A DNA stretch of 64,000 bases, taken from assembly GCF_003018235.1 (NCBI RefSeq), contig NZ_CP027437.1. One strand, given 5' to 3'. Within the stretch, counting starts at the first letter, position 1. Every line of letters starts with the position of its first letter. Below, one piece after another: positions 56,773 to 57,729 of this stretch. Made by a program: the position numbers and the translations under genes. The notes under the pieces were generated by a model. It ran no database searches. It worked only from the letters and a program-made list of their open reading frames with translations, and was not told where the DNA came from. Source of the stretch: Escherichia coli. GTDB taxonomy: Bacteria; Pseudomonadota; Gammaproteobacteria; Enterobacterales; Enterobacteriaceae.

Positions 56773-57729
56773 TTAGTACTCGATCCATGGATCACGCTTG
56801 CTTTCAGGCAAGGGCTGATCTAATGCCTGCATTTGCTCTGCCGAAAGTCCGGTATATCGTTGTATCCATTCAGGATCGGCCCCATTCTGCAACAATAATC
56901 GGAGGAGGCTCCGTTCCCCTTCTACTTTCCCTTCTTTCCTGCCCCTCTCCCTTCCCAACAGCCATCCATCATTATGAATTCGCTCTGCAATTGTCATTAT
57001 TCGCTCCCTGTGGTGTGGCATTCGCCTGGTAAGTTCGCTGATAAACGCCTTAAAACGCGCTTCATCGCCAGTCAGTAAAATGTAATTTAACAGCGCAGTT
57101 ATCTGGCTGTCATTAGCACACTCTGTAACCAGTAATACTACCAGTTGGTCGATAAGCCCCATCAGATCGCGCTGGCGAATATGCTTTTGGATCAACTCCA
57201 ACAGGGCGACTCTGCGATGCTGCACAATCTCGTCGTCTGGCACGACAGTGACATCCACCAGCGGGAACGCTGCGCTATAAAGTTTCCGTGCGGTAGTCGG
57301 GTCGGCAAATTCGTCCAGCCAGCACAGGGACCAGGGGTAAGGACTACGGCTACCGTGATAAAACAGCATCGGGATGACCAGCGGTAGCGGCCGGCGTTTA
57401 TCATGCTCGATATGGCGCTGCATCACCGCCATAGAATAGCGCATCAGGCGAAAGGCCATATGAATATCCTCGCGGCTCTGATGTTCAATCACCACATAAA
57501 TATAGCCATCGCCTTCGCGGGTCTTTACCGACCACAGAATATCGGAATGTAGCGCCCGCAATTTTTCATCGACAAAGCTGGCGGATTCCAGTTTTAAGCT
57601 GTCGAGATCGCACAGTTCACGTAAATCTTTAGGTAAGTGGATCTCCATAAAATCCCGCGCGGTGTCAGGGTGCATGAGAAAAGATTTAAATAATGCGTCA
57701 TGCGGCGTGCTGGTCGTGAAGTTTGTCAT
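56773..57729 (-). CDS. rpnD: Rpn-family recombination-promoting nuclease (PD-(D/E)xK, transposase_31/YhgA-like), apparently intact 318 aa
   Basis: N-terminus [33 protein letters not shown] typical of Rpn/YhgA family; uninterrupted ORF. Confidence 0.75.

Follow-up and report, generated by a model that had tools for sequence, protein, structure and literature searches.

The rpn genes of Escherichia coli are genes-within-genes, in which the full-length product (RpnL) acts as an endonuclease on DNA and is toxic (Zhong et al. 2023, PMC10400941). A second, small protein (RpnS) is made from an in-frame internal start located where the variable tail begins, and it binds and blocks RpnL (PMC10400941). 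RpnS was detected for all five rpn genes of K-12 (PMC10400941), an internal transcription start was reported in all of them (Zhong et al. 2023, PMC10400941), and for RpnA the internal translation start was proven at M244 (PMC10400941). The Rpn tails contain four-residue repeats that vary in number among strains, and in RpnC the number of repeats sets the specificity between RpnS and RpnL (PMC10400941). The rpn genes are enriched near defense genes, and antiphage activity has been demonstrated only for the plasmid-borne RpnP2, against T-even phages (PMC10400941).

One of the K-12 genes, rpnD, was first studied for recombination because it adjoins the immigration control region (PMC4498929). A published gene table gives yjiP and yjiQ as its synonyms, and two UniProt fragments exist for it (P0DP21/P0DP22). 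In the majority of E. coli strains YjiP is encoded in complete form, the stop found in K-12 being a point mutation, and a repaired allele, yjiPc, was synthesized for that study (Kingston et al. 2015, PMC4498929). Suppressor read-through of the K-12 amber codon was considered as the source of the activity reported there and was rejected because the allele had been synthesized in repaired form.

Identity of the intact rpnD gene

The window analyzed here is a stretch of 64,000 nucleotides of E. coli DNA (contig NZ_CP027437.1), in which rpnD is one open frame on the minus strand (56773-57729), with its ATG at 57729 and its stop ending at 56773. The list of open reading frames and the translation give a full-length product, RpnD-L, of 318 amino acids plus stop. 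This product is matched by Pfam PF04754 (Transposase_31, YhgA-like) over residues 8 to 210 with 290.2 bits (E=9.6e-87; cut-off of 21 bits) and by NCBIfam TIGR01784, [quoted passage not shown] with 169.5 bits versus a cut-off of 52.1. The first-pass annotation had described an uninterrupted 318-codon ORF of the Rpn/YhgA family, and the gene is indeed such an ORF at the coordinates that were given for it, the minus strand having been left unstated. It is flanked by yjiR (55118-56530, plus strand) and mdtM (58188-59429, plus strand), as is rpnD of K-12, and this conserved position, together with full-length similarity to the K-12 gene, makes it the ortholog of K-12 rpnD. RpnA (YhgA), the biochemically characterized exemplar of these proteins, is in the same Pfam and TIGRFAM family and has identically numbered catalytic residues; it is, however, a paralog and not an ortholog, as the RpnA equivalog model of NCBIfam scores the window product at 381 bits, under its cut-off of 583 bits. 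The window ORF is an ordinary, intact chromosomal rpnD of E. coli in its conserved yjiR-mdtM position, and its exact 318-residue protein is already present in NCBI (EED1927951.1 and others) on 71 contigs.

The lesion of the K-12 gene was mapped by aligning the window gene with rpnD of K-12 and of strain C4, which scores highest at this locus among complete genomes. The annotation of K-12 MG1655 lists rpnD (b4584) as a 921-nt pseudogene, and RefSeq notes an "internal stop" for the gene in a K-12 derivative. The alignment, followed by a check of the position, located this lesion as a single CAG-to-TAG change at codon 104 (57418-57420, minus strand); the window has the Gln codon CAG at this site, and the amber of K-12 divides yjiP from yjiQ. 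The earlier statement that the K-12 copy is broken and was once annotated as yjiP/yjiQ therefore agrees with the pseudogene annotation, the alignment, and the published synonym table, and the pairwise comparison that had been proposed has now placed the break.

Besides sharing the locus, the two genes are 90.2% identical at the DNA level over the whole gene with the gap counted, and they have the same ribosome-binding site and ATG at the internal start. They differ, in addition to the TAG at codon 104, in the tail, where 36 nt (12 codons), amounting to three four-residue repeat units, are missing from K-12 with the frame preserved; the last ∼20 residues of the K-12 protein are also divergent (K-12 end ...ERERYSWLKS). 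The clinical isolate MS6198 has a K-12-type allele of 306 amino acids in which CAG is kept, and since this allele is intact, the amber is the sole inactivating lesion in K-12. The gene of strain C4 (WP_000181145.1), which also encodes 318 amino acids, is 99.8% identical to that of the window at the DNA level, with one residue of the tail differing (D to E).

The Transposase_31/YhgA-like domain (57100-57708, minus strand, coordinates taken from the codon positions of the Pfam match) contains the PD-(D/E)XK core. In RpnA, residues D11, D63, E82, Q84, and R94 were found by mutation to be needed (PMC5350276). RpnA and the repaired RpnD of K-12 are the proteins for which Mg2+-dependent cutting of DNA, toxicity, and SOS induction are on record (PMC5350276, PMC4498929). 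All of these, and the PDDE motif, are present in RpnD of the window in RpnA numbering, with the codon of D11 at 57697-57699, the catalytic core codons from D63 to E82-H-Q84 at 57478-57543 (motifs HSD63 and IE82HQ84), and PDDE164-167 at 57229-57240, all on the minus strand. Among 31 homologs from Escherichia, Citrobacter, Salmonella, and Klebsiella, D11, D63, E82, R94, D165, and D166 are invariant and Q84 is at least 90% conserved. Moreover, comparison with 16 other E. coli alleles gave dN/dS values of 0 to 0.20 across the N-terminal 244 codons. This range shows that the N-terminal nuclease domain is under purifying selection and that the gene is not a chance ORF.

An AlphaFold2 model of RpnD built on the alignment of 31 sequences was too weak for a structural conclusion (mean pLDDT of 60.8, pTM of 0.46). 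A Foldseek search of the PDB with this model gave no match at an E value of 0.001 or below, the best being a tRNA-splicing endonuclease subunit (E=0.11), and a PDB sequence search with full-length RpnD also gave no match. The product was not matched by PADLOC 2023, which is uninformative because that release may be without an Rpn model.

Internal start and repeat array of the C-terminal tail

An in-frame internal ORF opens at Met245 of RpnD (ATG at 56995-56997) and runs to the end of the gene (56773-56997, minus strand), encoding a 74-residue protein, RpnD-S, that is the predicted antitoxin. A Shine-Dalgarno motif, GGGAG, lies 6 nt upstream of the ATG (57004-57008, minus strand), so that the arrangement GGGAG-N6-ATG is found at Met245 where the C-terminal tail begins, as expected from the sequence of a gene-within-gene start and one residue from the M244 of RpnA. 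The residues M245-T-I-A are invariant in the 31 homologs, and of the 20 E. coli alleles sampled, 18 keep GGGAG and two (O157:H7 and CEC08123) have AGAGAG. A promoter scan returned a candidate internal sigma-70 promoter by consensus match only, ATGACA-18 nt-TAAATT with TG (57084-57113, minus strand), located ∼90 nt upstream of the internal start and identical in K-12 and strain C4. This candidate would be in line with the transcription starts reported to lie inside rpn genes (PMC10400941).

The tail contains an array of four-residue (dodecamer) repeats at 56905-56964 (minus strand), identified from the translation and from comparison of alleles. It begins 12 residues past the internal Met, which is within the range of 8 to 20 given in PMC10400941, and three of its units (56917-56952) make up the 36 nt that are missing from K-12. 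Counted as [RK]xxG units, alleles of the K-12 type have none and an RpnS of 62 amino acids, those of O157:H7 and CEC08123 have one (66 amino acids), the common 314-residue alleles have two (70 amino acids), and the window allele has three (74 amino acids); an allele of 321 amino acids has four. The full lengths track the number of units, being 306, 310, 314, and 318 amino acids, plus 321 for the allele with four. Tandem Repeats Finder reported no DNA tandem repeat within rpnD. The 12-nt units share only 6 to 8 of their 12 bases, and the array is for this reason visible at the protein level and by comparison of alleles.

The evolution of the tail differs from that of the nuclease domain. Versus the most divergent alleles, dN over the last 46 codons is ∼10-fold higher and dN/dS reaches 0.84, with dS also higher, which indicates a tail that is fast evolving and probably mosaic.

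In structural terms, a PDB sequence search with the 74-residue tail gave a marginal match to the RpnA-S structure (7TH0, chain 7th0_A; E=0.01), and the tails of RpnA and RpnD are barely alignable. A Pfam scan of the same 74 residues gave nothing above noise, and PF27070, which is precomputed on rpnD homologs, was absent from it. The AlphaFold2 model places helices at residues 238 to 261, 268 to 281, and 286 to 293, with pLDDT values of 42 to 68 in this region; RpnA-S is a three-helix bundle.

A motif of the tail at 56875-56910 (minus strand; residues ∼274 to 285) resembles the ankyrin-repeat consensus, and designed ankyrin proteins outrank RpnA-S in the PDB search. The likeness is probably a coincidental helix-turn motif and not homology. 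The higher scores of the designed ankyrin repeats were put down to this short motif.

Intact and inactivated rpnD alleles across E. coli

The rpnD locus is present in 4,253 of 5,426 complete E. coli genomes, almost always as a single copy (median of one place per genome), and 4,291 of its 4,293 places are chromosomal. A 30-mer representing the amber haplotype of K-12 matches 338 of the 5,426 genomes and, among the matches listed, all 25 are K-12 laboratory derivatives or K-12-sized genomes (MG1655, DH1, DH5alpha, MC4100, MC1061, J53, EMG2, and others). By the same type of search, only two genomes have the amber in combination with the other local haplotype. CAG is present in at least 2,741 genomes, as two versions of the 30-mer (265 and 2,476), and ∼1,170 genomes with other variants within the 30-mer fall outside both the amber and the CAG counts. 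One sequence labeled "K-12 MG1655," NZ_CP010440.1, has CAG and not TAG at codon 104, unlike the 338 K-12-type genomes, and could have arisen by recombination or engineering.

Annotation at 20 sampled loci gave 15 intact genes, with products of 318, 314, 310, or 306 amino acids; the loci were picked down a similarity ranking whose bottom is over-represented, so that 75% intact is a rough figure. In a large protein collection, the clusters of full-length products (306 to 322 amino acids) hold thousands of members. Intact rpnD is the norm in E. coli and K-12 is the exception, as was already published in 2015. The contrast between the intact gene and that of K-12, on which the first-pass annotation was built, is thus real, and it is misleading in that PMC4498929, the genome counts, and the 20-locus sample all make the broken copy the unusual one. 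Indeed, this contrast, the recombination assay that had been suggested, and the exact protein are already known in every respect tested. K-12 is unsuitable as the reference state at this locus.

The five remaining loci of the sample are pseudogenes, each with a different lesion. K-12 has the amber at codon 104 (Q104amber), 21AR0133 an ochre at codon 15 (K15ochre), O157:H7 a tandem duplication of 25 bp, E272 an insertion of ∼125 bp, and RR1 a truncation by IS1. Since about a quarter of the sampled E. coli have an inactivated rpnD, the long RpnD protein is dispensable. Four of these five independent lesions (K-12, 21AR0133, O157:H7, and E272) spare the RpnS frame, which only the IS1 truncation of RR1 removes. 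In O157:H7 Z1831, the duplication covers nt ∼729 to 753 of rpnD, spans the internal start, and puts the long protein out of frame. The ATGACGATTGCAGAGCG start region is thereby present twice, and its second copy still opens an RpnS of 66 residues.

A possible repeated loss of the nuclease part with the RpnD-S frame kept raises the idea that orphan RpnD-S antitoxins are perhaps selected in their own right, which we regard as speculative and rather improbable. If it were true, an orphan RpnD-S might neutralize incoming RpnD-L alleles of equal repeat number, and the classes of zero to four repeats would be incompatibility groups among E. coli lineages. The three-repeat allele of the window would then stand for a group that has kept an armed toxin, next to an island whose Druantia is disrupted by IS21.

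The neighbors of rpnD are themselves variable, since some genomes with the 306-residue allele are without mdtM or have yjiR replaced. In FDAARGOS_1251, EC21GDE043, isolate 127, and 729_141114, all with this allele, yjiN follows directly after rpnD and mdtM is therefore absent. In three of these four genomes yjiR is replaced by gene fragments; two of the three have pieces of DUF262 in its place, and the other has a truncated regulator of the GntR family.

Predicted toxin-antitoxin function and alternatives

The internal start and the repeat array of the model of Zhong et al. are both present in rpnD, which supports its reading as a toxin-antitoxin gene. From homology and from the anatomy of the sequence, we consider it likely that rpnD is a one-gene toxin-antitoxin pair and a candidate antiphage system, a model (PMC10400941) that was missing from the first-pass annotation. 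Nuclease activity, toxicity, antitoxin action, and phage defense would be shared by analogy with RpnA, RpnB, and RpnC of K-12, the repaired RpnD, and the plasmid RpnP2. RpnP2-LS (plasmid, ECOR13), likened to RpnD by the family description, has the same gene-within-gene architecture. It is, however, plasmid encoded and active against T-even phages, whereas rpnD of the window is chromosomal and its role in defense is suggested by analogy.

According to this toxin-antitoxin model, the 318-residue RpnD-L would be a toxic, Mg2+-dependent DNA endonuclease of the PD-(D/E)XK type with low sequence specificity. RpnD-S, the 74-residue product that would start at Met245 in the same frame, would attach to the C-terminal domain of RpnD-L, a helical domain identical to RpnD-S itself, and keep the nuclease inactive. 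The matching between RpnS and RpnL would be set by the repeats in the domain's first helix (three [RK]xxG units in the window, none in K-12). RpnD-L, once freed, would damage DNA. The likely role would be an abortive or limiting antiphage defense, any rise in RecA-independent recombination being a side effect. Counting against this model are the weak AlphaFold2 model without significant fold matches, the marginal likeness of the tail to RpnA-S, the unchanged basal recombination after deletion of the K-12 rpn genes (PMC5350276), and the dispensability of the long protein.

The location of rpnD beside a defense island (mrr, hsdRMS, mcrBC, and Druantia III) also counts for the toxin-antitoxin defense reading. 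This island, between yjiA and yjiS (31690-53943), contains mrr, hsdR, hsdM, hsdS, mcrB, mcrC, and a type III Druantia. DruE3 of the latter spans 42673-49017 (minus strand; 2,114 amino acids). Its druH appears to be split by an IS21 insertion (istA at 50910-51932 and istB at 51929-52711) into an N-terminal part of 393 amino acids (52762-53943) and a C-terminal part of 582 amino acids (49105-50853). The flanks of the island (24970-31644 and 54771-64000) are collinear with strain C4 and 98.5 to 98.6% identical. The island itself is wholly different in C4, which has ∼11.5 kb versus ∼23 kb in the window and encodes BrnA, Fic, GmrSD, and another type I restriction-modification system.

The first-pass annotation had suggested that RpnD could contribute to recombination in this region, and on this view its physiological role would be to promote RecA-independent recombination and thereby the exchange of the neighboring restriction and defense island. 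The assay proposed for this idea had already been run on repaired K-12 rpnD between 2015 and 2017 (PMC4498929, PMC5350276). Overexpression of the repaired gene raised RecA-independent recombination ∼4.5- to 4.7-fold, and the replacements obtained in this assay spanned the island (PMC5350276, PMC4498929). The difference between the island and that of C4, within flanks that are 98.5 to 98.6% identical, points in the same direction. However, the effect requires overexpression and comes with toxicity, viability being down 94% and the SOS response induced (PMC5350276, PMC4498929), so that it would seem to follow from DNA breakage as a by-product. Moreover, deletion of rpnA to rpnD left the basal recombination frequency unchanged (PMC5350276), and Zhong et al. 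reported no transposase-like behavior and reassigned the family to toxin-antitoxin defense (PMC10400941). Turnover of the island is also seen in lineages in which rpnD is dead, K-12 included. Recombination as the primary role of RpnD is unlikely; it is plausible as a side effect of DNA breakage, and the two views do not exclude each other.

The ORF could also be intact and functionally silent, with little RpnD-L being made and only the small C-terminal protein mattering. In K-12, the RpnS proteins exceeded RpnL in abundance, and neither RpnA-L nor RpnD-L was detected (PMC10400941), which together with the four lesions that keep the RpnS frame would fit such silence. The absence of RpnD-L in K-12 is, however, expected because of the amber codon. 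The strong purifying selection on the nuclease domain and the invariance of catalytic residues across genera indicate that the long protein is used, which makes this alternative very unlikely.

Older annotations as "putative transposase" would make rpnD the transposase of an ISNCY-like mobile element, in line with the Pfam family name Transposase_31 and with the 392 bits that NCBIfam NF007418, "ISNCY family transposase," gives the product; this is effectively refuted, as that score is below the cut-off of 583 bits, the gene is single copy at a fixed chromosomal position (4,253 genomes and the sampled loci), 18 of the 20 genomes sampled have it next to yjiN/mdtM (in RR1 the stretch stops short of this flank, and MS6198 lists no feature there), Rpn genes have variable ends and no terminal inverted repeats or target duplications (PMC10400941), and no autonomous PD-(D/E)XK transposase is known (PMC10400941).

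For annotation, rpnD of this type is better read as a likely functional RpnD-L/RpnD-S toxin-antitoxin pair and candidate antiphage system, by analogy with its characterized relatives, than as a "putative transposase." The natural series of alleles with zero to four repeats at one chromosomal locus offers possible material for the rule by which the number of repeats determines the specificity of the antitoxin.

An Rfam scan of the rpnD locus gave nothing beyond one sub-threshold match to an sRNA, ES036 (CssrF), in the intergenic region between yjiR and rpnD (56682-56724, plus strand; 30.3 bits versus a gathering score of 37.6; E=0.0017). This match adjoins a REP-like palindrome at ∼56725-56760.
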